A stretch of 64,000 nucleotides of DNA from positions 1,666,482-1,730,481 of the forward strand of contig OZ243969.1 in assembly GCA_965214675.1 (NCBI GenBank). The letters run 5' to 3'. The position numbers were made by a program, and so were the translations under genes. Shown in pieces: positions 1 through 54,961 of this stretch (position 1 is the first letter of the stretch; each line of letters begins with the position of its first letter). The notes under the pieces were generated by a model that ran no database searches, was not told the origin of the DNA, and was given only the letters and a program-made list of their open reading frames with translations. This DNA is from Gammaproteobacteria bacterium (GTDB taxonomy: Bacteria > Pseudomonadota > Gammaproteobacteria > UBA4575).

Positions 1-1368
1 ACTATGCGGCGTTTCATGCTCCTGAACCTTGATGAAAAGCACCTCATTCCGGTACCCGTCAATTCGCAGTCGATCGCCGGACTGGACGGTCTGGGGCTCA
101 CTCAGGCGCCGGTCATTGAGCCTGATCTTGTAGTTTTTCAGGTGGCGCAACTCGATGCGCATGCCTTTTTTCTGGATCCTGCAGACCCCGCTTTCGTTGC
201 ATACCGGGTCCAGTGCCAGACGTATCTCGTGGTGGTCCTTGGTGAGCTGCAGTTCCTGTTTTTCGCCAAGCGGCCAGGCATGACTGCCGATCAGCAGGTG
301 GGTAGGGCAGTTGGGCAGGCTTGCCAGCAGCCCGGAATTGGGTTCGAGGAGTTCGACACGGGTGGACTTGTCCCAGCTCAGGGTCGTGGTGTAATGCACA
401 GCCTCATCCCCGGCGCAGATTTGCTCGCGATAACGCAAGGCCTGGCGGGCGATGCGGGTCGGGTCTGTGCCCAGTGTGGCACAGCCTGGCAGAGTTTTTA
501 AGAACTCGTTCAGACCGAAGACCTGGTTGCAGGTGGGAGAGCATACGATCGCGACCTTGTGGTCGGGAAGGAGTTCACTCAGGCAAATCGCGATCTCCTC
601 GAAGACGGCCTGGTTGATCCCTAGCACCTCTTTTCTGTGCAGTTGAATGCGGTGGCTTTGCCCTTCCGTGTGCAGCTCACAACCGACGGACTCCAGCGAT
701 TGCAGTGTCGCCAGCCAGTGCGGAAGCCGTTCATAAAGGAGTTGCTCGTCTTCGCCTTTTTGCAGGGGATCAAAGCGGGTTTCCCTGACAAACGCCGCCG
801 CAACCCATTTGGCCTGTGCCTGGATCAGTGACTGAAGCCCGTAGGGAATGACTTTGCCCGGGCGGCTGGCGGACACCTGCTTGCGGTCCTGGGCCACCAG
901 GGACAGGATGGTCCGCTCCTGTAAAACTGCGAGCCAGACGAGCCTGGCCTCGGGAACCGGCCCGGGGATGGCAAGCACCGCCTTGTTGACGATCCCCAGC
1001 ACCGAGATGTCGAGCTTTTCACAGATACCGAGTGCCAGCCCCAGTTCCCGTTTGCGCAGTGTGCCGGATACGGCCAGCAGTGCATCGTGGTCCTGGCGGT
1101 CGAGCAGGCTCCAGGCGAACTGCAGGTGATGCAGTGCAAGCTCGGCATGACTGACGGCATGCCGGGTCGTGCTTTGCCCGCCAAGGTCTGCCCAGAACCC
1201 GGTGTTGATATCCTGTGGGCGCAGATGCATCTGCTTTTCGGTTGCGTTTCCGACCAGGATGTCGGTCGGCGTATCCACCAGGGCACAGGCCGGGCTGTTG
1301 GCCAGGATGCGTTTGCCGTCGCTGATCAGGATGCCGCTTTCGTACAGATCGATGACTACCGTGGACAC
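1..1368 (-). CDS. Divergent Hsp70/DnaK-like ATPase, partial; the C-terminus lies beyond the window start
   Basis: Open minus-strand frame with no stop from 1368 down to 1 (>=456 codons). GTG start at 1368-1366 sits behind a perfect AAGGAG Shine-Dalgarno at 1384-1379. The N-terminus, VVIDLYESGILISDGKRILANSPACALVDTPTDILVGNATEKQMHLRPQDINTGF, aligns to the DnaK N-terminus, GIDLGTTNSCVAV..RVLENAEGDRTTPS..LVGQPAKRQAVTNPQNT. It is absent from the supplied ORF track, apparently because its stop lies outside the window. The plus-strand ORF 4..501 is its antisense shadow. Confidence 0.45.
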   Translation of the reverse strand, partial: MSTVVIDLYESGILISDGKRILANSPACALVDTPTDILVGNATEKQMHLRPQDINTGFWADLGGQSTTRHAVSHAELALHHLQFAWSLLDRQDHDALLAVSGTLRKRELGLALGICEKLDISVLGIVNKAVLAIPGPVPEARLVWLAVLQERTILSLVAQDRKQVSASRPGKVIPYGLQSLIQAQAKWVAAAFVRETRFDPLQKGEDEQLLYERLPHWLATLQSLESVGCELHTEGQSHRIQLHRKEVLGINQAVFEEIAICLSELLPDHKVAIVCSPTCNQVFGLNEFLKTLPGCATLGTDPTRIARQALRYREQICAGDEAVHYTTTLSWDKSTRVELLEPNSGLLASLPNCPTHLLIGSHAWPLGEKQELQLTKDHHEIRLALDPVCNESGVCRIQKKGMRIELRHLKNYKIRLNDRRLSEPQTVQSGDRLRIDGYRNEVLFIKVQEHETPHS

Positions 1369-1384
1369 GAGGGAGAGTGCTCCT

Positions 1385-2185
1385 TTACTTGGGTTGCAGG
1401 TGGCGGATCAGGTTATGGTTGCAGTAGTTTTGTGTATCCAGGATCAGGCGCTCCTGCAGGAGCTGGAGCTGGTACACGATGAACATCAGCACGATACTGA
1501 TACACAAGGCGATCAGGGTGGAGTTGAAGGCTACACCCAGGCTTTCCGTGACTCCGGCAATGTCCCCTTCCACGGCCTTGTGCGCCTGACCCAATGCATC
1601 GCCGATACCGCGCACAGTTCCGAGAAACCCGATGGAGGGAATTGCCCAGGTGATGTAACGGATGATGGACAATTCGGAGTCGAGGCGCTCGGCTTCGGAT
1701 TCGCATACGATCTGGGTGGCGGTGGAGACATCCTGGATGCTGCACGTGGAGTTGAAGCGGTGCAAGGCGACCAACAGGGCACGCGGCAGCAGGCAGTCCT
1801 GCTGTTCTTGCGTCAGGGCCTGGATCTGCCGGGTGAGCTTATGCGTGTCCTGTGGCAGGAACTTGATGCCCTCCTTGGCGTGCAGCAGGTTCATTTCCAG
1901 CATGCCTCTTTCGCGCAGCAGGTGGGCGCTCTTGTAGCTCATGATCACCAGGGCCCACAGCATGAGAATGAAGCAGGCCTCCTGTTCGTAGTCGCGCACC
2001 AGCACATACACCGAGCGTTTCGGCACGTAGTCCTGGTCCAGGTTGATCTGGGCGGCCTGGTACTCGAGTTCAGCTTCGGCATTGGGCCGGATCACGGTGA
2101 CATAGGCCGTGTGCACGACGATCATGATCAGCAGCAGGCTGAAGACCTGATAGGTAAGCTCGGAGGAAAACGGTTTTATTGTCAC
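1385..2185 (-). CDS. MotA/TolQ/ExbB-family proton-channel protein
   Basis: 266 aa with multiple TM helices and the family signature IPSIGFLGTVRGIGDALGQA. Its start overlaps the stop of the upstream small gene in an ATGA arrangement. No ExbD/TolR/MotB-like partner is encoded in the window. Confidence 0.6.
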   Translation of the reverse strand: MTIKPFSSELTYQVFSLLLIMIVVHTAYVTVIRPNAEAELEYQAAQINLDQDYVPKRSVYVLVRDYEQEACFILMLWALVIMSYKSAHLLRERGMLEMNLLHAKEGIKFLPQDTHKLTRQIQALTQEQQDCLLPRALLVALHRFNSTCSIQDVSTATQIVCESEAERLDSELSIIRYITWAIPSIGFLGTVRGIGDALGQAHKAVEGDIAGVTESLGVAFNSTLIALCISIVLMFIVYQLQLLQERLILDTQNYCNHNLIRHLQPK

Positions 2186-2187
2186 GT

Positions 2188-2427
2188 TCAGATGTCCGTT
2201 GGAAAACTGACCGGCTTGTCGGCCGAGACTTCTTCGCTGGGCACGAACTCCTCCAGGGGCGGGAGCTGAAATCTGCGGTCTCGCGAAAACCTCACGTCGG
2301 TGGCGCTCTCCTCACCTTGTTCTGCTGCAACCGTGCCGACGTTTTCAGGAAGATCGTCGATGTGCTCGGATGCCCCTGCCAGTGCCGGACACAGCGCCAT
2401 CCACAGCACGGCCGTGTGAAGTCTCAT
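2188..2427 (-). CDS. Small secreted acidic protein (signal peptide)
   Basis: 79 aa. N-terminal MRLHTAVLWMALCPALAGA looks like a signal peptide, and the mature part is Glu/Asp-rich. It is tightly packed between the FHA/PEGA gene and the MotA-like gene. Confidence 0.4.
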   Translation of the reverse strand: MRLHTAVLWMALCPALAGASEHIDDLPENVGTVAAEQGEESATDVRFSRDRRFQLPPLEEFVPSEEVSADKPVSFPTDI

Positions 2428-2433
2428 CGTACA

Positions 2434-4821
2434 CTAGTCCAGGTAGCGTGCAATTCGAAAGCCAAGATCGACATGTCTTTTATTATCCTGATCCCGGTAA
2501 CTGAGTCGAGTGTTGCTGAGGTCGCTTCGCTTCCAGGAAGCGCCACGAACCACATGCTTGGTGCCCGTCGCAGGCCCTGTAGGATCCACATAGACGGCAT
2601 CGCTCAGGGCAGGATACAGGCCATGGTAGTCATGACTCCATTCGGCAACGTTGCCATCCATGTCAAACAGTCCCAGTGGGTTGGCCCTGAAGCTGCCCAC
2701 CGGTGCCGCCACTGCAAAGCCATCATCATACTCGTCCAGGGTGACCTCAAGAATGCCGGCCGCTGCGCGATCGGCATAGTTGCCCGTAATTTCAACCGGT
2801 GGATAGTTCTCGCCCCAGGCGTATTTCGCCAGCGTGCCATCGGCCTGCCAGCGGGCTGCCCATTCCCATTCACTTTCCGTGGGCAGGCGATACCCTGACG
2901 GGATCGGATTCTTGGCCATCCAGTTTCCGTTTCTTTCTTCGTACACGGCGTTCAACCCTTCCTGTTCACTCAGCCAGTTGCAATAGCGTACCGCATCGGC
3001 CCAGGTGATGTTGACTACCGGCAATTCAGGTGCTGACAGGTCATACCCCCTGTAGCTGCCGGAGTGATGAGAGGCCATGAAGGCTGCAAAACGGCCGTTG
3101 GTCACTTCGGTGGTCGCCAGATAGAACGGGCGTTGCAGTGAGACCGTGTGCAGGGTCTCGTTGGTGCGCCGCCCCTGCTCGCGCCTCGGAGCCCCCATGG
3201 AAAACTCGCCACCCTGCAGGCGTACCAGTGTCTCACCCAGATGATTGCGGATGCGCGCGGGCCCGGTACGGGGTCCATGGTCTGCCGATGGCTTCAACGA
3301 AACCTCGATCACTTGAGGGGCCTGCGGTTTCGGAGTCATGGTCTGTGAGTGGCTTTCGTAACCGGATTTTCGTACCTCAAGGCGATGCGGTGCACTCGGC
3401 AGGCTGAGCCGGAGTCTGCCGTGACCTGCCGACTGGCCCTGGACCAGTACCTCGGCGTCTTCAGGCACCGGGTGCACGATCACGGTCCCGAGGATCGCCT
3501 CGAGGCGGGCATTCACCGTCTGTTGCTCGCCGGGCCGGATACGAAGGCTTTGCCGGCTCGGGCGGTACCCGGGCTTGGTCAGGGTCAGGCGGTGTTGGGC
3601 ATTGGGTGCCAGGGCGATGGTCAGCGGAGTGGTGCCTTTTTCAACGCCTTCGATGAACACATGGGCACCTGAAGGCCTACTGGCGATCAGCGCATGGCTG
3701 GTTCCTGTCTGCAAGTGCACGGGTGCCAGCGCGAGTGGCTGGTCCGCCAGCACCCGGAAATCCGAAGTATGGGTGAGGTAATCTGGATGGCGCAGGTCCA
3801 GCCGGTACTCTCCCGCCATCAACTCCAGGCGCACGGGCGTTTTGCCTCTGCGGACACCGTTCAGCCAGACCTCGGCCAGTTCCGGTCGCGAATCGATGGA
3901 CACCTCGGACCATCCTGGCTGCAACTGTATCCGGAGATCCTGTTGAACCAGTTCGCCCTGCATGACCAATTGCGTCGTATACGGAAGGTAGCGCTCGGCG
4001 AGCGCCTGCAGCGTATAGGTCCCCGCCGGCAACTCGATGCGTTCGACCGGGGTGACTCCGAAGGGTTTGTCATCGATCAGCAGGTGCACGCCATGTTCGG
4101 GGACGCTGGTAATGTTCAGGTAGCCGGAATGTTTGAGCAGGGTGAAGGCGAGGGTCTGGGATGCGTGTGTACCGACCCGGATCTCATGGTCCAGGGGGTG
4201 GTACCCGGCCCGGGTTGCCTGCAGGCGGTATTCGCCCGGACGTACCAGATAGCGCCCGCGTATCTTGAGTGGCCACGGGGTGCCTTGCAGGCGGACCGAA
4301 TCCGCGGCTGGATCAATCTCGATTTTCAGGCTCTTGGCCGTAAATACATGGACCACGAGCAGCACCAGGGTGATCAACACGGCCGCACCTGCAAGGGAGA
4401 GAGCGCCGCGCAACCGCCACCCTGATTTTCTGGCAGCCATTTTGGGAGGCACCAGCGGCGAAATCACCTCGCCATGAGGCACCACAGGACGCGTATCGCT
4501 GTCCTGGCCGCAGGGCCCGTCCACTACGGAAATCGAGAAGGTATTGCCGACATGTGCGATCTGAAAGTGGGTCGCCTCGATTTGCAGTATGTCCCCGGGG
4601 TGCAATGCCGTTGGAACTTCCACGCGGTGGTGGTTCAGCCGCACCTCAATGTCCGCATCCTGAGGTTCGATATAGACCTGGTTGGCATGGATACTCAGAA
4701 GCGCTGCCGTTGCGCCTGCATGGACCTTTGATGCAAGCTTCAGTGGAAAATCGGCCGGAGTGTGCTGCCGTTGTCCTTGCGCATCCGTGACGAGGATCTG
4801 CTGGATGACTTTATTTGACAT
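2434..4821 (-). CDS. Multidomain envelope protein: FHA-like N-terminus, one TM helix, about 5 PEGA repeats, and a C-terminal FGE-sulfatase (SUMF1/PvdO-like) domain that lacks the catalytic Cys pair
   Basis: 795 aa. The N-terminus has an FHA-like motif (SKVHAGATAALLSIHANQVYI...HPGDILQIEATHFQI). A hydrophobic helix (LSLAGAAVLITLVLLVVHVF) is followed by repeated PEGA-like units, for example PSGAHVFIEGVEKGTTPLTIALAPNAQHRLTLTKPGYRP. The C-terminus carries FGE-sulfatase motifs (GGEFSMG, TEVTNGRFAAF, RLPTESEWEWAAR, GNVAEWSHD, VVRGASW) with only one Cys in the whole domain. Confidence 0.6.
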   Translation of the reverse strand: MSNKVIQQILVTDAQGQRQHTPADFPLKLASKVHAGATAALLSIHANQVYIEPQDADIEVRLNHHRVEVPTALHPGDILQIEATHFQIAHVGNTFSISVVDGPCGQDSDTRPVVPHGEVISPLVPPKMAARKSGWRLRGALSLAGAAVLITLVLLVVHVFTAKSLKIEIDPAADSVRLQGTPWPLKIRGRYLVRPGEYRLQATRAGYHPLDHEIRVGTHASQTLAFTLLKHSGYLNITSVPEHGVHLLIDDKPFGVTPVERIELPAGTYTLQALAERYLPYTTQLVMQGELVQQDLRIQLQPGWSEVSIDSRPELAEVWLNGVRRGKTPVRLELMAGEYRLDLRHPDYLTHTSDFRVLADQPLALAPVHLQTGTSHALIASRPSGAHVFIEGVEKGTTPLTIALAPNAQHRLTLTKPGYRPSRQSLRIRPGEQQTVNARLEAILGTVIVHPVPEDAEVLVQGQSAGHGRLRLSLPSAPHRLEVRKSGYESHSQTMTPKPQAPQVIEVSLKPSADHGPRTGPARIRNHLGETLVRLQGGEFSMGAPRREQGRRTNETLHTVSLQRPFYLATTEVTNGRFAAFMASHHSGSYRGYDLSAPELPVVNITWADAVRYCNWLSEQEGLNAVYEERNGNWMAKNPIPSGYRLPTESEWEWAARWQADGTLAKYAWGENYPPVEITGNYADRAAAGILEVTLDEYDDGFAVAAPVGSFRANPLGLFDMDGNVAEWSHDYHGLYPALSDAVYVDPTGPATGTKHVVRGASWKRSDLSNTRLSYRDQDNKRHVDLGFRIARYLD

Positions 4822-4835
4822 CGGCGCTTGTTGGA

Positions 4836-6395
4836 TCAGATCGTCTCTTTACACGAAATATGCACGCGTCCGTTTTTCATGTCCGGGGTCACGTTGAGAG
4901 TTTTTCGAACGTCTCGATAACCTGGTCGAGAGCCGAGGATCGTGTAGCGTCCTGGCCGAAGTTGCACGTCGTAGTGCTCGAATCGTCCGAGCTGGCCCAC
5001 CCGGAAGATGCTCACGTCGGTCTGGTTGTCCGAATACAGGGCAATTGAGACGGGCTGGCGGGCCTGTTCGATCACATCTTGCAGGGCGTTGGCTGCTTGC
5101 AGGATTCGCCGACCCGGACTTTCGTCAAGTGATACGATTTCATCCAGCAATGTCTGCACCTCAGCCGATACTTCAGCCGAGTACAGGCGCTCGCTGTGCT
5201 CAAGATAACCCCCCAGCATTGCCAGCAAGGCTGCACGGGATCTTGATCGCTCGGCGGCCTCCCTGGCATGGGCGGTCTGCGGGGCGAGCGCCAGAAGCTG
5301 CTGCCAGCTTTGTGCGGCATGTTCCCAATCCTCGCGTTCCTCAAAATGAAGAGCCTCGACTTCCAGTTTCGCGATTTTTTCCTCGAGCTCAATCTGGTCG
5401 ATTCTGAGCAGCCCCTGCGCCGGCCGGTCCGAATCAGGAACCAGAGCCTGCGCCTTGTGAAAGGCGGTGCGGGCATCATCAAACTGGCGGTCCTTTAGCG
5501 AGTCGTACGCGCGAGTCATCCACCGGGAAAACTCCTCCTGGTTCAATTGCTCAGTTATCCGGTTTAGAGCCGCCACCGCCTCGCCCGACAGCGGGTCCAG
5601 GGCGACGGCCTCCCGGTAGACCTGTTCAGCACCCTGAAGATGGTTGGCCGCTTCGAGGTTGCCGCCCCTGTCCAGCAAAGCGAAAAGTTCACTGAGCGTC
5701 GCCGCTCGCGAAAGGCCATCGAGAGCCTGGCGGTTCTGGGAATCCACGGCGAGTGCCAGGTTGAAATGATGTGCAGCCACCTCGCCCTGGTTTCTCGACA
5801 GGGCCTGCAGGCCCTGCTCAAGGGCTTCATCCAGCACGGCGGCGGCCTGTTTTTGAAGTGCTTCAAGGAGGTCAATCGCCTGTTCATAGTGATCGGCTGC
5901 CTCGGCAAACGCCTGCTCGCGAAAATGAGCATCGCCGTCGTGTCCCCTCGCCATTGCCTGGTCGTAGCCATCACGGGCCCACAACTCAACCCCCTGTTGT
6001 TGCAGGGCCTCCTGTTTTTCAAGCAGGTCCAGGAGCAGCTTTTCCGCATGCAGTTTCAAGGCCGTAATCTCCGGATCTGAAACCCCAGCCTGATTTTTGG
6101 CAAGCGCCTCTGGCATGCCGCTTGGCTCGGACAGGGGCTCCGGGGGCTCGAGCAGGTGTACGGGGGGCTCCTCGCTCAGCGGGCCATCCGTTCTTTCGCG
6201 ATCGACCCATTCAGGCAACGCCAAGAACACGAGTGCCGCGACGGCCACCAGTACGAAGAACAGGACAGTCGGCAGGGCTGCACTGCGCGCATCCTTCGAC
6301 CGTGTCCCGGCCGCAGACGGCGTTCGCACGGTGTCAGGGTCAATCTTTTTAACAGGGGTGGAATCGTCTTTTCGCATGGCAGGTAAAAATCGCAC
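4836..6395 (-). CDS. Transmembrane TPR-repeat protein with a Pro/Glu-rich linker and a C-terminal PEGA domain
   Basis: 519 aa. A TM helix (LPTVLFFVLVAVAALVFLAL) is followed by a TonB/TolA-like Pro/Glu linker (EEPPVHLLEPPEPLSEPSGMPE). Then come long TPR-like helical repeats and a C-terminal PEGA-like segment (LRPGRYTILGSRPGYRDVRKTLNV). Confidence 0.5.
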   Translation of the reverse strand: MRFLPAMRKDDSTPVKKIDPDTVRTPSAAGTRSKDARSAALPTVLFFVLVAVAALVFLALPEWVDRERTDGPLSEEPPVHLLEPPEPLSEPSGMPEALAKNQAGVSDPEITALKLHAEKLLLDLLEKQEALQQQGVELWARDGYDQAMARGHDGDAHFREQAFAEAADHYEQAIDLLEALQKQAAAVLDEALEQGLQALSRNQGEVAAHHFNLALAVDSQNRQALDGLSRAATLSELFALLDRGGNLEAANHLQGAEQVYREAVALDPLSGEAVAALNRITEQLNQEEFSRWMTRAYDSLKDRQFDDARTAFHKAQALVPDSDRPAQGLLRIDQIELEEKIAKLEVEALHFEEREDWEHAAQSWQQLLALAPQTAHAREAAERSRSRAALLAMLGGYLEHSERLYSAEVSAEVQTLLDEIVSLDESPGRRILQAANALQDVIEQARQPVSIALYSDNQTDVSIFRVGQLGRFEHYDVQLRPGRYTILGSRPGYRDVRKTLNVTPDMKNGRVHISCKETI

Positions 6396-6430
6396 GCCTC
6401 CCTACAACATTGTCGCGTACTGCGTGCAGT

Positions 6431-7603
6431 TTAAATACTGTCCTGGAGGATCTTGTCCGCAGGCAGGCCCGTCTCTTGCAAATAGATTTCGCGCAACAGT
6501 TCGCGCCACTGGCGGTACTGTTCTTCAAGGGTGCCCGTGATCTCAACCGTGCGGCCCTGAATGTCCAAGACCAGGGGTTTCACCTCGGCCTTGAGGGAAT
6601 CTCCGAGTTCGCGGATGGCATCATCGTGAATCTGTGCTTCCCTGGCAATGTCGATGCCATCCTTGTACAACATGGCGCCGGTCGTCACAACGCCCGGGTA
6701 GTCTCTCAGCAGGCCCACAATCATGATCGCGGTGGCGGCAAGCTTGGTCCGGTTCGCGCGGCGTTCAATGGCCCGTTTTTGCTGGAGTTCAAGAAGGTAA
6801 TACCGGCGCCAGTTCGTATAGGGCCAGTGCATCACACTGTGAAAATTTGCGTAGTGCTCATTGATCGTATCGACGAACAGGTAGTCGCGTTCGCGGATCT
6901 TGCGTACCCGTTGCAGCATGGGATCATTCTTGGCCGGCAAGCGAGCCAGTTGCACCTGTCCGTTTGGCAGCCACACAAGATAGCCGGAAAACGAGTCGGG
7001 CGAGATGCTGGCGGCATAGCGCAACTCGGAGGTGTTTCGTATGCGGAGCAGTTGCCGGGCCGCCAGTTTCTTGCGGTGCCGGTAAATGTCATTGGCGATG
7101 CGGTTGTAGACGTGTTGGTAGACATCATCCCCTGGCTGGATGTCGACGTAGTCGTGTTCTGTCAGCTTGGCCTTGTACTTCCTGTCGAACCACAGGGTGC
7201 CGGTACTGTCCGAGACATGAGTGTGCAAAACCAGCGTCTCACCGTTTGAGATGATGATGGTGGCGCGTACGATGACATCCGCAATATGGGAGGCGGCCGG
7301 CAGCACCCGGATGGCGCCCCAACCGTAGGCGTGCTGCAAGGTCTCTTTCAGGTGATAGGCCATGTAACGCGCTTCGGCCGCACGGATATCCTCGTGGATA
7401 TTCTCCTCTTCCTGTTCTGGGGTAATCTCACCTTCATCGAACAGGAGCACCCCGACGTCCAGCAGAAGACTGTCCTGCAATTGCACCGTCTGCGATTCGA
7501 TTTCTTCCCCGCCTGAAACCCGTACCGTGTTCAGCGAACAGCTGCTAACCAACATGGCGATGGTCAGCCACAGGCACACCATCGAGTTTCCGGGCAGGGT
7601 CAT
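6431..7603 (-). CDS. Lipoprotein of unknown function
   Basis: 390 aa with a signal peptide and a lipobox (LVSSC). It has no recognisable catalytic motif and overlaps the upstream gene by 4 nt. Confidence 0.45.
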   Translation of the reverse strand: MTLPGNSMVCLWLTIAMLVSSCSLNTVRVSGGEEIESQTVQLQDSLLLDVGVLLFDEGEITPEQEEENIHEDIRAAEARYMAYHLKETLQHAYGWGAIRVLPAASHIADVIVRATIIISNGETLVLHTHVSDSTGTLWFDRKYKAKLTEHDYVDIQPGDDVYQHVYNRIANDIYRHRKKLAARQLLRIRNTSELRYAASISPDSFSGYLVWLPNGQVQLARLPAKNDPMLQRVRKIRERDYLFVDTINEHYANFHSVMHWPYTNWRRYYLLELQQKRAIERRANRTKLAATAIMIVGLLRDYPGVVTTGAMLYKDGIDIAREAQIHDDAIRELGDSLKAEVKPLVLDIQGRTVEITGTLEEQYRQWRELLREIYLQETGLPADKILQDSI

Positions 7604-8277
7604 TCGACTTCAGAGGAGGTCGAGGGCGTTACGCTCGCCTGTTGCTTCTTGTATTTGCGGTACTCGTCCCACAACTTCTCCCTGAGCACAGGATCGCGCT
7701 CGTTTTGTGCGGCTTCTCGAAGCTGGCGGGCGACAACATCGTCATCATCACCGCTGGGGATGTCGGCCGGTGGGGGTACCCGGTGCGCACCTCGTGTTCC
7801 ATGCTCGTCACTGCCTTCATCCGGATCGTCACCGGGTCCGCCGGACTCCGGGTTGCCCGCCTTGGCTACGGACCGGTCGGGCAGGCCTGCATCTGCCGGG
7901 TGTTCAGCCCCGTGCATATCTTCTGACCCGGATTCAGGCGCTTGTATATCTCCTGCAGCGGACGGCTGGTGGGCTTGTCTTTCGGCTTGCGCTTTTTCAA
8001 ATTCCTCGTGAATGGCTTCATCGTAGCGGCCCAGCGCCTCTTCGAGCTGCTGATCCAGCACAGCCACTTTTTCATCTTCGGTAGTGGCCGCGGCTTGCTT
8101 GTCTTTGGATGGCCGTTCATCCGGGGACCGTGCATTGTCTTCGGTTTGATTTTCAGTGGAAGGTGGCGAGTCAGGTGTCTGTGTGCGTGACTGGCGCTCC
8201 GGCTCCAGTGTGCTGCAGGCACCAAGCCAGACACCGAGCAACAAGATCAACAGGCACCGGAGGTCATGTGTTGTCAT
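7600..8277 (-). CDS. Acidic low-complexity lipoprotein
   Basis: The track ORF 7600..8433 starts at a far-upstream alternative codon. An internal ATG at 8277 gives MTTHDLRCLLILLLGVWLGACS, which is a signal peptide plus lipobox. The rest is Asp/Glu/Pro/Ser-rich. It is the first gene of the operon, after the 8278-8480 intergenic region. Confidence 0.45.
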   Translation of the reverse strand: MTTHDLRCLLILLLGVWLGACSTLEPERQSRTQTPDSPPSTENQTEDNARSPDERPSKDKQAAATTEDEKVAVLDQQLEEALGRYDEAIHEEFEKAQAERQAHQPSAAGDIQAPESGSEDMHGAEHPADAGLPDRSVAKAGNPESGGPGDDPDEGSDEHGTRGAHRVPPPADIPSGDDDDVVARQLREAAQNERDPVLREKLWDEYRKYKKQQASVTPSTSSEVE

Positions 8278-8480
8278 TGTTCTGCAATTCTGCCCGGCAC
8301 GTATTTCTGGGTCCGGATGAGATCTATTGAATATCACTATACTTGAATTGAGATCAGGTAGGGTAGCCTGCACCCGCGCCCGACAGAGGGCAAAAACGAT
8401 TGATTGGAATCCCTTATAGGGTCCATAGGTCACCGTGGAATTTGATTGACAAGCTCATGCATGGCGCCTAGAAAGGTGAC

Positions 8481-10012: not shown

Positions 10013-10537
10013 CTATCGAAGGACCAGGCTCAATATCAACAGACCGCTCAGGATCGCGCTCGCGAGCTTCCAAAAAGTGCAGGGTGCCTCTCCAGCAGGG
10101 GTGCTGACCCGGCACGGCGGACCAGATTCTGCATCCAGAGTAGAAAGATCGGCGATGAACTCTGACAAGGTTTCATATCTGTCGGACGGGTTTTGCGCCG
10201 TCGCCTTGGCCAGTGTCAAGTCAATCTACTTCGGCAGGCCGCCACCCTTTGCGAGCGGGACATAGGCGCGGTTCACGTACGCGCGCGCATCACGTGCCAG
10301 CGGCGGGCGGTACGGCAGTTTACCGGCTAGCATTTCGCAGGCGACGATGCCCAGGGCATAGAGGTCTGCGCTGTGCGTTGCAGGCTGACCCTGCAGGCAT
10401 TCCGGGGCGACATATCCGACCGATCCAGCAGGACAGGACTCCCGGACCACGGAATCGAGTTCGTCAAGGCCCTGTACATAGGCGGTGCCGAAGTCGATGA
10501 TCAGTGAATCAATAAATTTGTTTTTAAAGACGTGGCT
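10013..10537 (-). pseudogene. Ser/Thr protein kinase remnant: subdomains VII-XI plus the C-terminal TM helix only, interrupted by an in-frame TAG
   Basis: Frame reads IIDFGTAY...SVGYVAPE...DLYALGIVACEMLAGKLPY, then a stop at 10228-10226, then ...NPSDRYETLSEFIADL and a TM helix. There is no N-terminal catalytic half. The frame begins immediately after the TGA of the upstream Fe-S gene at 10540-10538. Confidence 0.65.
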
Positions 10538-12256
10538 TCAGTGACCTGAAAGCGGCACGCCTACGGCCGGATTGGCGGCCAGGCCGATATCTCGAGCGTG
10601 CTGCTCGAAAGCCTTGTTCTTCCAGAAGAATGCACCCGGTATCGTCGTGGGGGTAACCACCACGTAAAACAGCGCGCGACCCGAGACTGCAACAAGCAGG
10701 CTGAGCGTGGCTGCGAGCATCCACGGCAGTGGATGGGTGATGCCGGCCAGGCCCAGCACGACCACGAGCAGCAGGGCACTGGCCAGAAGCGCGTTCCTGA
10801 GGTAGTAGACACGGCTAAAGGTTGTGGTCTGCACATAGTGCGAAACCGCGCCTTCGTGCGATGCGCCGGCCATGTCACCCCGGTGCCCGATCAGGCCCAG
10901 CGATTCCAATGCCAGGCCAGCGGCGATTGCAATCACCACGGGCAGGGATACTCCGGGAGTACTGGCAAGAGCCACCCAGCCGCCCAATGCCAACGACGTT
11001 CCGACAAAGGCGGTGGCAGTCTGCCAGTGGTTCCAGAACGGTCGAGCAGGAATCGTGTAGCAGCGCACCATGAAATAAAGTGTTGCAATGCCTGCAGCAA
11101 CTGCAAACAGGCCTGACAGGAGCGCTGTACTGTCGTAGCCTCCCAGGTGGGCGAGGAAAAACAGGCCGGTAGCTGCGCCGAACAAGGCACTCGCCAGCGC
11201 TTCGCGGCTCAGGTTCGAGTGGCGCAGGTTATTGAAACCACGGTAGAACCGCATTTTCTTGCCAAGATGCGCCGTCGAAGCCAGCATGCCGACGACTACG
11301 AGTGCGAGTGCAGCGAATGCGATCCAGCCCCCGGCCACCCCGGCAGCAAACGCGACTGCGAAGGCACCCACGCCGGCCTGCACTGCCAAGGTGAAGGCCA
11401 CCAGCGGGGTTTCCCGCGATGACAGGCGCGCGAGATTCCAGCGTTTCCGTACCCCCTGTTTGGGATCGATGACCGGGTGGAACGAGCGATCATCACCCTT
11501 GCGGTACTTGATGGGTTCCGAGTCCGGTCGTGTGACTTCAAGTGGTGCCTGTTTCACTTGCTGGAAACGGATATTCGGATTCGTGATCCCGGGGTCGGGA
11601 AACCCGGGGATGCATGTCTCGACTTGCTCGCGGCCCCTCGGCACGTTCTCGACCACGCCAAAATCCAGGGCGTTGCCCACGCAGGCGGACACGCAGGCCG
11701 GCTTCAAGCCGACCTCCAGTCGATCCACGCACATGTTGCACTTTTCGACCTGGCCTGCCACCGGATCAAGTTGCGGGGCATTGTACGGACAGACCCAGGT
11801 GCAGTAGCCACAGCCGAAGCAGATATCAGGATCCTGAATCACGGCACCATATTCAGGGTGCTTGGTATAGGCCCGCGTTGGACAACCCTTCAGGCAGACA
11901 GGGTCGTCGCAGTGGTTACAGGCCATCGAGAGGTTGATGCGTGTGTAGTCAGGATAGGTTCCCCCTTCCACGTAACCCACGGATCGAAAGCTCAAGTGTG
12001 CCGGCAGGTCATTTTTCTCGCTGCATGCAGCCTCGCACGCGTGACAGCCAATGCAGTTGTCCGCGGTGAAGTGGAATGCGTGCTGCTGGGTGCGGTTCGG
12101 GTTGTCACCGATGCCGGCATCGCCATTGATGTGGAGACTGACACCGCGCTCGCCATCTGCCAGCAGCTGGATCGGCTTGCCGTAGCGGTTCAACGCCTGC
12201 GCAGGGGTATCCGAAAGCCTGGCGTAGTCCGGTTCGTCGGTACGTAACGGAATCAC
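10538..12256 (-). CDS. Fused 4x[4Fe-4S] ferredoxin (DmsB/NrfC-like) and polytopic membrane anchor (DmsC/NrfD-like), no Tat signal
   Basis: Four Cys clusters (CIGCHACEAAC, CNHCDDPVCLKGCP, CFGCGYCTWVCP, CNMCVDRLEVGLKPACVSAC) are followed by about 8 hydrophobic helices. It is translationally coupled to the upstream molybdoenzyme gene (start/stop at 12256). Confidence 0.6.
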   Translation of the reverse strand: MIPLRTDEPDYARLSDTPAQALNRYGKPIQLLADGERGVSLHINGDAGIGDNPNRTQQHAFHFTADNCIGCHACEAACSEKNDLPAHLSFRSVGYVEGGTYPDYTRINLSMACNHCDDPVCLKGCPTRAYTKHPEYGAVIQDPDICFGCGYCTWVCPYNAPQLDPVAGQVEKCNMCVDRLEVGLKPACVSACVGNALDFGVVENVPRGREQVETCIPGFPDPGITNPNIRFQQVKQAPLEVTRPDSEPIKYRKGDDRSFHPVIDPKQGVRKRWNLARLSSRETPLVAFTLAVQAGVGAFAVAFAAGVAGGWIAFAALALVVVGMLASTAHLGKKMRFYRGFNNLRHSNLSREALASALFGAATGLFFLAHLGGYDSTALLSGLFAVAAGIATLYFMVRCYTIPARPFWNHWQTATAFVGTSLALGGWVALASTPGVSLPVVIAIAAGLALESLGLIGHRGDMAGASHEGAVSHYVQTTTFSRVYYLRNALLASALLLVVVLGLAGITHPLPWMLAATLSLLVAVSGRALFYVVVTPTTIPGAFFWKNKAFEQHARDIGLAANPAVGVPLSGH

Positions 12257-14439
12257 TAGAACGTCCTCAAGGCTGTGTTTTGCAGCGCGGCTTCATGCTG
12301 GTCGACAGACTCAATGCGCACCGCGCACTGCTTGAACGCCGGCTGTCTCGAATACGGATCGAGCAGGCCCAGGGTCAGCCGATTGACGCACTCGTGGAAG
12401 TGAAACGGGATGAATACCATGTCGTTCGGCACACGCTGGGTGCACTGGACCATCACCACGGCATCGCCGCGGCGGGACACCAGCCGGGCATAGCCCATGT
12501 GGTCCACGCCCAGCTCATCGGCTGCATCCGGGTTCATCTCCATGTACGGTGTCGGCGAAAACTTGTTGCAGTCACCGACCTTGCCGGTCTTGGTTCTGGT
12601 GTGAAAGTGTTCCACCACGCGTCCACTGTTCAGCCAGAACGGGAAGTCTGCATCCGGGCGCTCGTTATTTTCGAGGTACGGCAACGAAAGCAACTTCGCC
12701 TTGCCGTCAGGAAATGCAAAAACACCATCGGTATACAGGCGCGGTGCGCCTTTCACCTCACCTTCCCGCATCGGCCACTGCAGACCGCGTGCGCGCTCGA
12801 TCCTGTCGTAGCTCATGCCTGAAATGTCGAGGTTCCTGGTCTGCCCCTTGGAGAGCTGCTTCATTTCCTCGAACGCGGCCTGCGGTGTCTCGGGCCAGTT
12901 CATGTTCGCTGCACGATCCCAGCGTTTGGCGAGTGCCGTGAAAATCCAGTGGTCCGGTCTCGAGTCCGCGTAGGGCTCGCTGACCGGCCGCGTCAGGTTG
13001 ACGCGACGCTCGGTGTTGGTGAAGCAACCCTCCTTCTCGGCCCACACAGAAGCTGGCAGGAAGACATGGGCGTAGTCCGCGGTCTCGGTGTCCTCGTAGG
13101 CATCCTGTACGACACAGAAGTCGAGCTTTTGCATGGTTTTGCGGATACGCGGCGAATTCGGCATGGAGGTCAAGGGATTCGTGGCGATCACCCAGAGGGC
13201 CTTGATCTGGCCGGTTTCAATGGCGGGAAAAATGTCTGTTTGAAACAGGCCGCGCTGCTTCGGGAAGAACTCCGGATCAACGTTCCAGAACTTCCCGACT
13301 TCCTCGCGATGGGTCGGGTTCTCAAGTTGCCGATAGCCAGGCAAGCCCGAACACGACGACCACTCGCGGGTACCCATGGCATTGCATTGCCCGGTGATCG
13401 ACAGGCTCGTGCCACCGGGTTTGCCGATATTCCCGGTAACGAGATTGAGATTGTTAATCGCGCAGACACCATCGGTACCGTGGGTCGACTGGTTGATGCC
13501 CATCGTCCAGATTGCCATGGCCGCATCGGCATTACCGTACAGGCGAGCCACGTGTCGAATGGTGTCCTCATCAATGCCGCAGATCTTCGCGGCCGTGGAC
13601 GGGTCATAGCGTGCAACAGTGGCTGCGAAGTCCTCGAATCCGTGCGTGTGCGCGCGGATAAAGGACTCATCGTGCAGGCCATCTTCGAGAATGACGTGGC
13701 ACAGGCTGTTGAGTAACACAAGGTCGGTGCCCGGAGTGACGGGCAGGTGGATATCCGCGAACTGCGCGAACATGGTGACACGCGGATCGACAACGATGAT
13801 CGGAAACCGACGCTTCTCAAGCGCCTCTTTCAGGCGCCAGTAGATAATCGGGTGCTGTTCCGGGAGGTTGGAACCGAACGCGAGCAGGCAGTGCGTGTGA
13901 TCGAAGTCGGCATAGCATCCAGGGGGACCGTCTGCTCCGAACGAGCGCTTGTAACCTGACACGGCGGAGGCCATGCAAAGGGTCGTGTTCCCGTCATAGT
14001 TGTTCGTGCCGATCACACCCCTTACCAGCTTTCCAAGCGTATAGAACTCCTCGGTCATGATCTGACCGGTGGATACCACGGCCACGGCATCGCGCCCGTG
14101 CTCGGCTTGAATTCGCTTGAACTCGCCGGCGACACGATCAAGTGCAGTGTTCCAGTCCGTACGCTGCCAGTGTTCATAAATGCGGTTGCGTACTTTGGGT
14201 GAGCCGCCGCGACCGGGCGCTGCAAAAATCTGTGCCTGGGTCAGTCCCTTGATGCAGAGCTTGCCACGATTAACATCGGCACCGCCGAGGCCACGTGCAG
14301 TGACCGGCTTGCCCTCACTATCCACACCGACCTCGACGGAACAACCCACGGAGCAATATCCACAGGTCGTGTATTTCCAGTCGACAACGCCCTTGTCGGC
14401 GATGCGGATGGGGTTTTTGGTGCGGCGACCGAACAGCAT
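12256..14439 (-). CDS. nasA: Assimilatory nitrate reductase catalytic subunit (molybdopterin oxidoreductase, cytoplasmic)
   Basis: N-terminal Fe-S motif TTCGYCSVGCSVEV....KLCIKG with no Tat signal, and MoCo-oxidoreductase family similarity throughout. The track start (GTG at 14529) would overlap nirD by 79 nt. The internal ATG at 14439 overlaps by 13 nt and is preferred. Confidence 0.6.
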   Translation of the reverse strand: MLFGRRTKNPIRIADKGVVDWKYTTCGYCSVGCSVEVGVDSEGKPVTARGLGGADVNRGKLCIKGLTQAQIFAAPGRGGSPKVRNRIYEHWQRTDWNTALDRVAGEFKRIQAEHGRDAVAVVSTGQIMTEEFYTLGKLVRGVIGTNNYDGNTTLCMASAVSGYKRSFGADGPPGCYADFDHTHCLLAFGSNLPEQHPIIYWRLKEALEKRRFPIIVVDPRVTMFAQFADIHLPVTPGTDLVLLNSLCHVILEDGLHDESFIRAHTHGFEDFAATVARYDPSTAAKICGIDEDTIRHVARLYGNADAAMAIWTMGINQSTHGTDGVCAINNLNLVTGNIGKPGGTSLSITGQCNAMGTREWSSCSGLPGYRQLENPTHREEVGKFWNVDPEFFPKQRGLFQTDIFPAIETGQIKALWVIATNPLTSMPNSPRIRKTMQKLDFCVVQDAYEDTETADYAHVFLPASVWAEKEGCFTNTERRVNLTRPVSEPYADSRPDHWIFTALAKRWDRAANMNWPETPQAAFEEMKQLSKGQTRNLDISGMSYDRIERARGLQWPMREGEVKGAPRLYTDGVFAFPDGKAKLLSLPYLENNERPDADFPFWLNSGRVVEHFHTRTKTGKVGDCNKFSPTPYMEMNPDAADELGVDHMGYARLVSRRGDAVVMVQCTQRVPNDMVFIPFHFHECVNRLTLGLLDPYSRQPAFKQCAVRIESVDQHEAALQNTALRTF

Positions 14440-14450
14440 GACAGCATGTC

Positions 14451-14792
14451 TTAATGGCGGACCTGGATCCGACCCGCAATGACGCGAGTCGGGTACGTGC
14501 GGATTGAGACCGCATCGTCCTCGATACACTGGCCCGTTTTCAGGTTGAAGTGTTGTTTATAGACAGGTGAGGCCACCACAAGCTGCCCCTTAAGGTCCCC
14601 GACAATTCCGCGTGAAAGTACGGGCACGTTACTGAACGGATCGATAGCATCGATCACGAAGATGTCGTCAGAGCACGACACGCGAAACACCGCGACCTGG
14701 TCGTCACCTAGCAGCGCTCTTACACCCACATCGGGTATCAGCGCATCGAGTTCACAAACAGTGGTCCAAGGCATGGCTGGCATCCACTTCAT
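14451..14792 (-). CDS. nirD: Nitrite reductase [NAD(P)H] small subunit
   Basis: 113 aa, Rieske-like NirD family, overlapping the nirB stop by 4 nt. Confidence 0.7.
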   Translation of the reverse strand: MKWMPAMPWTTVCELDALIPDVGVRALLGDDQVAVFRVSCSDDIFVIDAIDPFSNVPVLSRGIVGDLKGQLVVASPVYKQHFNLKTGQCIEDDAVSIRTYPTRVIAGRIQVRH

Positions 14793-18837: not shown

Positions 18838-18913
<76 letters not shown>

Positions 18914-54884: not shown

Positions 54885-54961
54885 CGGAGTGTAGCTCAGC
54901 TTGGTAGAGCACTGTCTTCGGGAGGCAGGGGTCGGAGGTTCGAATCCTCTCACTCCGACCA
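54885..54961 (+). tRNA. tRNA-Pro (anticodon CGG)
   Basis: Acceptor CGGAGTG/CACTCCG, D-arm GCTC/GAGC, anticodon stem CTGTC/GGCAG with loop TTCGGGA, T-arm GGAGG-TTCGAAT-CCTCT, and an encoded CCA. Confidence 0.85.

Follow-up and report, generated by a model that had tools for sequence, protein, structure and literature searches.

A conserved nine-gene operon around a MotA/TolQ/ExbB-family channel as a candidate trans-envelope motor machine

The 5:2 class of motors comprises MotAB, ExbBD, TolQR, AglRQS, GldLM, and ZorAB. The closest described relatives of the system examined here are transmembrane (TM)-tethered von Willebrand factor A (vWA) proteins, which are "predominantly found in heterologous pairs" and co-occur tightly with tolQ homologues without tolR/exbD (Mol Biol Evol 2025; PMC12204202). 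The trans-pore helix of these proteins bears a conserved Asp, and AlphaFold 3 puts them inside a TolQ-like pentamer; no function was assigned there (PMC12204202). The prototype is from Idiomarina loihiensis, and the family occurs in Proteobacteria (Fig. 4c-d of PMC12204202). In the Agl-Glt system of Myxococcus, GltG consists of an FHA domain, a TM helix, a long periplasmic extension, and a C-terminal domain, and its FHA domain and TM helix are predicted to dock on the AglR pentamer (PMC11761067). Here, we describe a minus-strand locus at the edge of a 64,000-nucleotide stretch of DNA from a gammaproteobacterium (contig OZ243969.1 of assembly GCA_965214675.1, positions 1,666,482 to 1,730,481; hereafter, the window). 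We consider it likely that this locus, an operon of nine genes, builds a 5:2-type trans-envelope motor machine driven by the proton-motive force. A first-pass annotation, made from the sequence of the window, had proposed an envelope-spanning machine with a MotA/TolQ/ExbB-type channel; this idea is supported, the module being conserved, and its suggestion that the module is energized by the proton-motive force is very probably correct.

The channel, its vWA partners, and the extent of the operon

Gene 6 (1385–2185, minus strand) encodes a MotA/TolQ/ExbB-family channel protein, as previously suggested, and matches MotA_ExbB (PF01618) with an E-value of 1.2e-13 (51.4 bits; cutoff 22.9). Conservation analysis brought out the motifs IGFLGTVRGIGDAL and AFNST. 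The protein, predicted to be a pentameric A subunit, scores 28.8 bits against the TolQ family of NCBIfam (TIGR02796; cutoff 221). Within the window, there was no family match to ExbD, TolR, or MotB, and a six-frame regular-expression scan found no ExbD/TolR-like TM motif, the partner being an off-window vWA pair. The channel had been described as lacking a partner of the ExbD/TolR/MotB type, which does not hold because two paralogous genes with an Asp-bearing TM helix are located two positions downstream of the channel gene, with gene 7 between, and the first of them begins at bases 17–1.

The minus strand of the window terminates in ...CAGGAGCATGAAACGCCGCATAGT, where the ATG at bases 17–15 opens MKRRIV, the start of gene 8 (1–17, minus strand; ATGAAACGCCGCATAGT). 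This start and the 3' end of gene 7 overlap by 20 nt if the off-window stop codon of gene 7 is included, and the overlap is identical in L001, a contig from the European Nucleotide Archive that shares 95.7% DNA identity with the window across 10.5 kb. Only the stop codon of gene 7 (1–1368, minus strand) is off the window, and its frame was judged complete at 456 codons because homologues span 445–460 aa. In L001, the same seven genes are followed by two further genes at 11352–12443 and 12447–13454 (363 and 335 aa), and a search for what follows gene 7 in other loci likewise returned the two TM-Asp/vWA paralogues. The remainder of gene 8 and the whole of gene 9 lie off the window and were both read from near-identical relatives. 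The seven co-directional minus-strand open reading frames (ORFs) of the window were recovered as first annotated, with gaps of −4, 35, 14, 6, 2, and 16 nt from gene 1 to gene 7 in order, whereas the operon itself comprises nine genes rather than seven and is interrupted by the window edge.

Genes 8 and 9 (vWA1 and vWA2) are paralogues with 25–30% identity and share a layout of a basic N-terminus, a TM helix with a near-invariant Asp, a helical stalk of ~110 residues, and a vWA head. The TM motif is F-[ST]-[LM]-[SA]-F-L-D-[VC]-[MI]-x-C-[GA]-[FL]-G, and the SFLD Asp motif follows the basic N-terminus in 75 of the 76 vWA1 ORFs and 68 of the 70 vWA2 ORFs, the exceptions being truncated ORFs. The DxSxS motif of the metal ion-dependent adhesion site (MIDAS) is intact in all vWA sequences (146/146). 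The stalk segment is poor in Pro and Gly, and coiled-coil proteins were its sole matches. Following the positive-inside rule, the coiled coil and the heads are likely periplasmic. The products of gene 7, the vWA genes, and the lipoprotein genes fall outside all curated NCBIfam and PADLOC families, and a protein search with a 46-column profile of the TM helix returned only contig-end fragments, with no link to Idiomarina.

We predict that vWA1 and vWA2 are B subunits of the TolR/ExbD type on account of their motif, position, pairing, and gene linkage, and the claim is one of functional equivalence rather than homology. The TM helix shows a likeness to the Asp helices of Escherichia coli ExbD (PFIDVMLVLL) and TolR (PLLDVLLVLL), and Pfam confirmed both query sequences as ExbD-family. 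Alignment by hhalign pairs SFLDVM with PFIDVM of ExbD (D25) and PLLDVL of TolR (D23), with E-values of 0.28 and 0.05 that are non-significant for so short a helix, and Pfam ExbD gave no match to the N-terminal 70 aa or the TM segment of the vWA proteins. Judged from their sequences, the operon-encoded proteins appear to have the feature that characterizes the 5:2 class, namely a single-pass B candidate with a protonatable Asp near the cytoplasmic end of its helix.

Exact-sequence look-ups of the window proteins in a contig index gave no match, and the genomic context was taken from homologues: 84 loci were retrieved by similarity to gene 7, and all components were compared by tblastn. As the first-pass annotation had proposed to check, the gene order recurs elsewhere, across phyla from Gammaproteobacteria to Acidobacteriota (~80 loci) and in nearly every locus with enough flanking sequence. 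The conserved order is lipoprotein, lipoprotein, tetratricopeptide repeat (TPR) protein with or without a kinase, FHA-PEGA-FGE protein, small peptide, MotA-like protein, gene 7, vWA1, and vWA2. Both vWA1 and vWA2 are present in 81 of the loci, the PEGA/FGE protein in 80, and the MotA-like protein in 78. Chance juxtaposition of the genes is ruled out by this conserved synteny. The identity of gene 7 to the copy in the window ranges from 96% down to ~25%, and the nine-gene order is also found in L002 (42% identity), L003 (28%), and L004, a Vicinamibacteria metagenome-assembled genome (MAG). Between the window and Steroidobacter-type loci, identity is 55% for vWA2, 48% for MotA, 42% for vWA1, and lowest for gene 7 (26%).

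A tenth gene follows vWA2 in 44 Steroidobacter-type loci (L003 and L031–L084; ~13.4–14.5 kb in locus coordinates) and is absent from the window-type clade; its product of ~230–306 aa has a lipoprotein-like signal and no family match. The sole rearranged order was observed in L073, a Pseudomonadales MAG, where gene 7 is separated from the MotA-like and vWA genes, ~3 kb downstream of it, by a homologue of the tenth gene.

A scan of one genome per species identified a gene 7 relative in 263 species, and among representatives of 50%-identity clusters the gene 7 profile has 2516 matches, 1166 with E < 1e-30. The hosts include uncultured Gammaproteobacteria, Thiotrichales, Steroidobacteraceae, and Acidobacteriota, and the cultured members of the Steroidobacteraceae include Steroidobacter flavus, Peristeroidobacter soli, and Peristeroidobacter agariperforans. 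The flanking genes are housekeeping genes (atp operon, glmSU, purH, and nuo), and a scan of viral contigs found no relatives. Several of the uncultured hosts have chromosome-level assemblies of only ~2 Mb, and retention of the operon in these hints at an important role in the envelope.

Upstream of the operon, the only sizeable non-coding gap (8278–8480) is shared with a divergent FA_hydroxylase gene, in line with the hydroxylase neighbor first reported. This gap had been taken to hold a single promoter; no minus-strand match to the sigma-70 consensus was found there, and the promoter region is presumed. A scan for promoters and terminators found nothing convincing in 8278–8480, and intergenic minus-strand terminators were not above background.

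Products of genes 1 to 5

Gene 4 (2434–4821, minus strand) encodes a large protein with a degenerate FHA-like head (aa 1–~100; window 4522–4821) that is predicted to be cytoplasmic, a TM helix (aa 141–157) that ends in a conserved FTA motif, four PEGA stretches identified by Pfam, and an FGE-sulfatase domain (aa 530–792; window 2446–3234) with an E-value of 9.5e-48. The PEGA repeats and the formylglycine-generating enzyme (FGE)-like domain are thus as first annotated. A single Cys, residue 614, occurs in the FGE region, which had been described as cysteine-less, and the C-terminal part that we take to correspond to the position of the catalytic Cys pair in human FGE is free of Cys. Because the catalytic pair appears to be absent, the domain is probably non-catalytic. 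The FHA-like head stands as a fold signal, as a profile of 17 orthologous gene 4 N-termini matches solved FHA domains (Ki-67 with an E-value of 1.9e-4, and also KIF13B, EssC, and Rv1747), whereas the single-sequence score is weak (E = 0.012) and the residues for the phosphothreonine (pThr) binding previously attributed to it are absent, with GG replacing GR and no SxxH. In L006–L011, whose gene 7 is 78–83% identical to that of the window, the PEGA/FGE protein is 690 aa long and lacks the N-terminal FHA-like head while retaining the juxtamembrane HGE-I-xP motif (HGEVIRPV). Since these loci lack the head, it is dispensable within the clade.

The FGE-like domain raises the question of whether the operon encodes a secretion or surface-motility apparatus, similar to type IX secretion (T9SS) and gliding machinery (GldKLMN) or to Agl-Glt, in which the FGE domain would act as GldK/PorK and the motor would drive a surface adhesin. 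GldK/PorK is the best NCBIfam match of the domain (E = 2.7e-31), a 5:2 motor with an Ig-like periplasmic rod resembles GldLM, and Agl-Glt has both a vWA adhesin (CglB) and an FHA-TM helix protein (GltG). However, the GldK score of gene 4 is 109.3 bits, far under the cutoff of 350, and no match of gene 4 to GldJ reached the NCBIfam cutoff. Moreover, the cluster has no conserved gene for an outer-membrane beta-barrel, a translocon, or a cargo, and the hosts include uncultured Gammaproteobacteria with ~2 Mb assemblies and no gliding genes seen nearby. We therefore regard a secretion or motility apparatus as improbable.

Gene 3 (4836–6395, minus strand) encodes a bitopic protein with a short cytoplasmic N-terminus, a TM helix (aa 44–60) supported by hydropathy and ending in F-L-x-L-P, a Pro/Glu-rich linker, TPR repeats (Pfam TPR_2, E = 3.7e-12), and a C-terminal PEGA-like beta domain. 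The TM helix, linker, and TPR repeats of the original description are upheld; its PEGA domain is weaker, as the PEGA-like region (aa ~448–519; window 4839–5054) is sub-threshold, and PEGA or CarboxypepD_reg is matched in 12–13 of the 14 gene 3 orthologues with best E-values of 1e-4 to 1.6e-3. In the alignments, no conserved charged or His residue was found in the TM helices of gene 3 and gene 4.

Two lipoproteins, one of them extremely acidic, were expected, and both have a lipobox. Gene 1 (7600–8277, minus strand; isoelectric point 4.5, D+E 23%) has the lipobox LGAC, an acidic middle region that is disordered, and a C-terminal segment of ~40 aa (GDDDDVVARQLREAA...LWDEYRKYK) that is conserved and contains a DDD cluster. 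Compared with its 653-aa Steroidobacter counterpart, only the C-terminal 42 aa are conserved, at 76% identity, and gene 1 matched no Pfam or NCBIfam family. Ser at position +2 suggests that it may be located in the outer membrane. The ATG at 8277, which yields a signal peptide and lipobox, is the likely start; the ORF can be extended to a GTG at 8433 (277 aa; 7600–8433, minus strand), and this extension is unconserved and gapped in the orthologue alignment. Gene 2 (6431–7603, minus strand) encodes a 390-aa lipoprotein that was modeled with moderate confidence (predicted local distance difference test (pLDDT) of 77.6) as an alpha/beta domain at the N-terminus followed by a long hairpin of helices and a small domain at the C-terminus, and the fold matches were uninformative.

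Gene 5 (2188–2427, minus strand) encodes the small secreted acidic peptide that had been annotated, with 79 aa, a signal peptide, and a variable acidic linker. Its C-terminal motif PSE.V..D..V.FP.D[IT]-COOH is present in all orthologues (66/66). The orthologues are 55 to 120 aa long and can be aligned only across the last ~20 residues, and the motif is unusually strict for a peptide without a family assignment. As a hypothesis, the MIDAS of the vWA heads could plausibly bind one of two acidic elements, the gene 5 C-terminus or the DDD cluster in the gene 1 tail.

Gene 7 and the kinase/FHA switch

The AlphaFold2 model of gene 7 is confident (pLDDT 89.8, predicted template modeling score 0.85). 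Residues 1–~340 have the fold of the Hsp70 nucleotide-binding domain, the top 50 Foldseek matches all being Hsp70 (E-values to 5e-16), whereas no Hsp70 sequence match was found in Pfam, NCBIfam, or phmmer searches of the Protein Data Bank (PDB), and the family profile reached only E = 0.014 against PDB Ssb1. The domain list first drawn up for gene 7 was incomplete, as it overlooked a C-terminal FHA domain: aa ~355–447 (window 28–306) form an FHA beta-sandwich, distant homologues score with Pfam FHA, and the family profile matches the FHA domain of Ki-67. For comparison with DnaK, the E. coli nucleotide-binding domain was used and its sequence checked against PDB DnaK at 830 bits. In the hhalign alignment, both phosphate loops (DLGTTNS and DLGGGTFD in DnaK) are two residues shorter in the gene 7 family and without Gly/Thr, and the residue aligned to the catalytic Glu (E171) is Lys or Ala. 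The phosphate-1, phosphate-2, and catalytic Glu motifs conserved in the Hsp70 family are therefore not found in gene 7. The Hsp70-family assignment stands at the level of the fold, and the ATPase motor proposed with it is unlikely. With its ATP-binding apparatus unconserved, gene 7 more likely serves as a scaffold or clamp in the cytoplasm than as an ATPase.

The TPR slot of Steroidobacter-type loci encodes a protein with a Pkinase domain at its N-terminus (E = 6.3e-29 for L072 and 1.9e-26 for L003), and gene 3 is the kinase-less form of this Ser/Thr kinase-TM-TPR protein. The Steroidobacter-type orthologues of gene 7 keep the canonical G-x-S-R-x-H...N-G motif (Pfam FHA, E = 5.7e-11). The window clade lacks the kinase domain, and the pThr-binding S-R-x-H of the FHA domain is lost there to a deletion of four residues, so that the residues of a pThr reader (Arg, Ser-x-x-His, and Asn-Gly) are found in the Steroidobacter-type orthologues and not in gene 7 of the window. 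Across the loci, the kinase and the canonical FHA domain co-vary, with both in 29, neither in 27, and 16 exceptions. The exceptions are explained by truncated contigs, near-canonical motifs (SHVH), a frameshifted ORF in L081, a kinase outside the operon in L032 and L037, and a separate PP2C-kinase gene in L001 and L005. The phospho-regulation that had been envisaged fits the sister lineages, in which the kinase is fused to the TPR protein and FHA is canonical, and does not fit the window lineage, from which an ancestral kinase/FHA phospho-switch appears to have been lost.

This distribution bears on whether the operon encodes a transmembrane sensing or signaling module instead of a force generator. 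In that case, a cue from the envelope or from outside would be sensed by the FGE-like, PEGA, TPR, and vWA domains, and the MotA-like channel and Asp helices would sense perturbations or gate an ion path, as has been proposed for ZorAB; the kinase, the FHA domains, and the Hsp70-fold protein would relay the output. Many loci do have the TPR-fused kinase with a canonical FHA domain, FGE-type domains are ligand-binding or sensing modules in other bacterial systems (PMC7159879), and a weak PADLOC similarity to ZorA was detected (E = 1.2e-4). On the other hand, the cluster has no conserved gene for an effector or a transcription factor, ZorB, ZorC, and ZorD are absent, and the genomic contexts are housekeeping. 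The motor genes are the most conserved, and the window lineage retains the motor and periplasmic parts although the kinase and the pThr-binding residues are gone, which means that signaling cannot be the conserved core function. We consider a sensing module unlikely. Two further candidates were rejected. An anti-phage system was dismissed as PADLOC found no defense signature, with only the weak ZorA match (E = 1.2e-4) and generic coiled-coil and kinase matches, and the MoxR-vWA ternary conflict systems were dismissed as the cluster lacks MoxR and MotA is never mentioned in their description (PMC7159879).

A decayed kinase gene had been reported near the operon at 10013–10537, and we recovered it as a pseudogene remnant at ~10067–10501 (minus strand), consisting of the kinase C-lobe of a fusion of PP2C and a Ser/Thr kinase. 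It is the 3' part from the DFG motif onwards and shows 82% identity (tblastn) to the intact PP2C-kinase gene of L001, with a 5' truncation, an in-frame stop, and a frameshift. Its designation as the remnant of a cognate kinase is weakly founded, since the neighboring PP2C-kinase gene is limited, among window-type loci, to the two closest relatives (L001 and L005) and is not found in L002 or L006–L028.

These results also bear on the arrangement initially inferred, an orphan MotA-like channel without a B subunit that is energized or regulated by a true Hsp70-type ATPase and a cognate neighboring kinase. The absence of an ExbD, TolR, or MotB family match in the window, the Hsp70 fold of gene 7, and the nearby kinase remnant are all in keeping with such an arrangement. 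However, B-type partners come directly after gene 7, beginning within the window at bases 17–1, the phosphate-binding loops of the Hsp70 fold are lost, and the neighboring kinase is a pseudogene in the window and absent from L002 and L006–L028. An orphan channel is largely refuted by this evidence and is very improbable.

Homology to L001 breaks within the PP2C-kinase gene, at ~10502. The window has, in place of the 5' part of this gene, a segment (10502–17329) that encodes a Fer4_11+DmsC fusion (10538–12256), a molybdopterin oxidoreductase (12256–14529), and a NirB-like nitrite/sulfite reductase (14789–17329). The segment reflects a redox gene cluster that was inserted or rearranged in a strain-specific manner. 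Elsewhere in the window, the sole Rfam/ARAGORN matches are tRNA-Thr(CGT) at 18838–18913 (minus strand) and tRNA-Pro(CGG) at 54885–54961 (plus strand).

Proposed machine and comparison with known systems

In the machine that we propose, one vWA1 and one vWA2 would form a heterodimeric axle within a pentamer of the channel protein, and proton flow via the Asp residues would turn or pull this axle. On the coiled-coil stalk, the two adhesion heads, which are metal-dependent, would reach ~15 nm into the periplasm, where they may grip an acidic ligand, with the invariant C-terminus of gene 5 and the DDD-containing tail of gene 1 as candidates. Gene 4 would act in the manner of TolA or GltG, with its TM helix and FHA-like head docking on the outside of the pentamer, its PEGA rod spanning the periplasm, and its probably non-catalytic, lectin-like FGE domain binding a partner in the cell wall or outer membrane. 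The TM-TPR-PEGA-like protein and the two lipoproteins would complete the periplasmic and outer-membrane side, and the Hsp70-fold/FHA protein could be a cytoplasmic scaffold, clamp, or adaptor. In sister lineages, the TPR-fused Ser/Thr kinase and the canonical FHA domain would constitute a phospho-switch. Candidate outputs are tethering or maintenance of the outer membrane, or the handling of a surface structure.

Several points weigh against such a machine. The components are known here from sequence and models alone, and the vWA genes, save for 17 nt in the window, from the sequence of relatives. We infer the 5:2 pentamer-to-dimer stoichiometry, ion-driven rotation, docking, the ligand, and the outer-membrane location of the lipoproteins, as well as the topology, which was derived from hydropathy and the positive-inside rule alone. 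The similarity of the vWA TM helices to ExbD and TolR is statistically non-significant (hhalign E = 0.28 and 0.05; no Pfam ExbD match). Docking of the gene 3 and gene 4 proteins on the motor is an analogy only, because their TM helices have no conserved charged or His residue, and the ligand of the vWA heads is a guess. Finally, the comparison with the Idiomarina prototype is drawn from its published description.

The operon does not belong to Tol-Pal, Ton, T9SS, Zorya, or the type VI secretion system (T6SS), and gene 7 is not a canonical Hsp70. The first-pass view that the arrangement lies outside named systems was borne out, with no Tol, Ton, flagellar, T9SS, T6SS, or Zorya match. Resemblances are nevertheless distributed over several of them. 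As in TolQRA-Pal and ExbBD-TonB, a MotA/TolQ/ExbB channel is combined with a partner helix that has an Asp near its cytoplasmic end, bitopic proteins have long periplasmic extensions, one of them with a Pro/Glu-rich linker, and lipoproteins and a TPR protein are encoded in the operon (cf. CpoB/YbgF). In contrast to Tol and Ton, the channel reaches only 28.8 bits against TolQ (cutoff 221), its TolQ and ExbB equivalog scores being far under the cutoffs, and the YbgF score is 15.4 against 90. Furthermore, a coiled coil and vWA domain take the place of the ExbD/TolR periplasmic domain, the peripheral TM helices lack a conserved His of the SHLS type, and the cluster has no TolA, TolB, Pal, TonB C-terminal domain, or TonB-dependent receptor.

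Similarly, the Myxococcus Agl-Glt system (AglRQS, GltG, and CglB) has a TolQ/R-type motor and involves TPR proteins, lipoproteins, and a vWA protein, and the architecture of gene 4 resembles that of GltG, a bitopic partner with cytoplasmic FHA domain(s) immediately ahead of the TM helix. The vWA domains are on the B subunits here and on an outer-membrane adhesin there, however, and the periplasmic tip of gene 4 is FGE-like whereas that of GltG is TonB-like. Outer-membrane barrels, MglA, and AglZ are missing, and the operon has nine genes compared with at least 17 Agl-Glt proteins. With GldK/PorK-GldLM of the T9SS, the operon shares a periplasmic FGE-fold domain without Cys beside a 5:2 motor and a single-pass protein with an Ig-like rod. 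The FGE domain is fused to an inner-membrane-anchored rod here and belongs to a lipoprotein ring there, and the operon has no homologues of GldL, GldM, GldN, or Sov, with GldK under the cutoff.

The adjacency of a membrane Ser/Thr kinase gene and a canonical FHA protein gene in Steroidobacter-type loci is reminiscent of Thr-phosphorylation switches such as PpkA-PppA-Fha1 of the T6SS and the mycobacterial FhaA/FhaB. Unlike these, the loci lack T6SS and divisome genes, the TagH and FhaB equivalogs score ~24 bits against cutoffs of 120–125, and the switch is degenerate in the window lineage. Gene 7 shares its fold with the Hsp70 nucleotide-binding domain, including that of the atypical Ssz1, but it is only 12–16% identical, has no Pfam HSP70 match, has both phosphate loops shortened, and carries an FHA domain in place of the substrate-binding domain.

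The system has the features described for the TolQ-like/trans-pore-helix vWA family (PMC12204202), a likeness that is drawn from the description: a tolQ-like gene without tolR/exbD and a heterologous pair of vWA proteins with an Asp helix. It differs in that the Hsp70-fold gene lies between the channel and vWA genes, and the accessory genes (FHA, PEGA, FGE, TPR/kinase, lipoprotein, small peptide, and Hsp70-like) are unmentioned in that paper. The motor core was therefore predicted computationally in 2025 (PMC12204202), and the seven other components are absent from that prediction. The searchable literature yielded no account of the complete system of nine or ten components with its regulatory variants. 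We tentatively suggest, as a possibility to which we give slightly less than even weight, that the operon represents a distinct and widespread class of 5:2 motor with a vWA coiled-coil heterodimer as the axle, a TolA/GltG-like transducer, lipoproteins, a peptide ligand, an Hsp70-fold pseudo-ATPase, and an ancestral kinase/FHA gate, and with an envelope function that differs from those of Tol-Pal, Ton, flagella, gliding, T9SS, and Zorya.

If this is true, stalked vWA heads on B subunits and a fixed set of seven accessory proteins would be unusual features, as would the eukaryote-like kinase/FHA switch in some lineages and an Hsp70-fold protein apparently without ATP binding. The cultured Steroidobacter and Peristeroidobacter hosts make genetics feasible, and the natural variants with and without the kinase offer a ready comparison for the regulation of the motor. 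The operon would then add a machine to the few 5:2-powered ones that are understood, namely the flagellar stator, Ton, Tol-Pal, Agl-Glt, T9SS, and Zorya, each of which showed a new route for sending inner-membrane energy to the cell surface.

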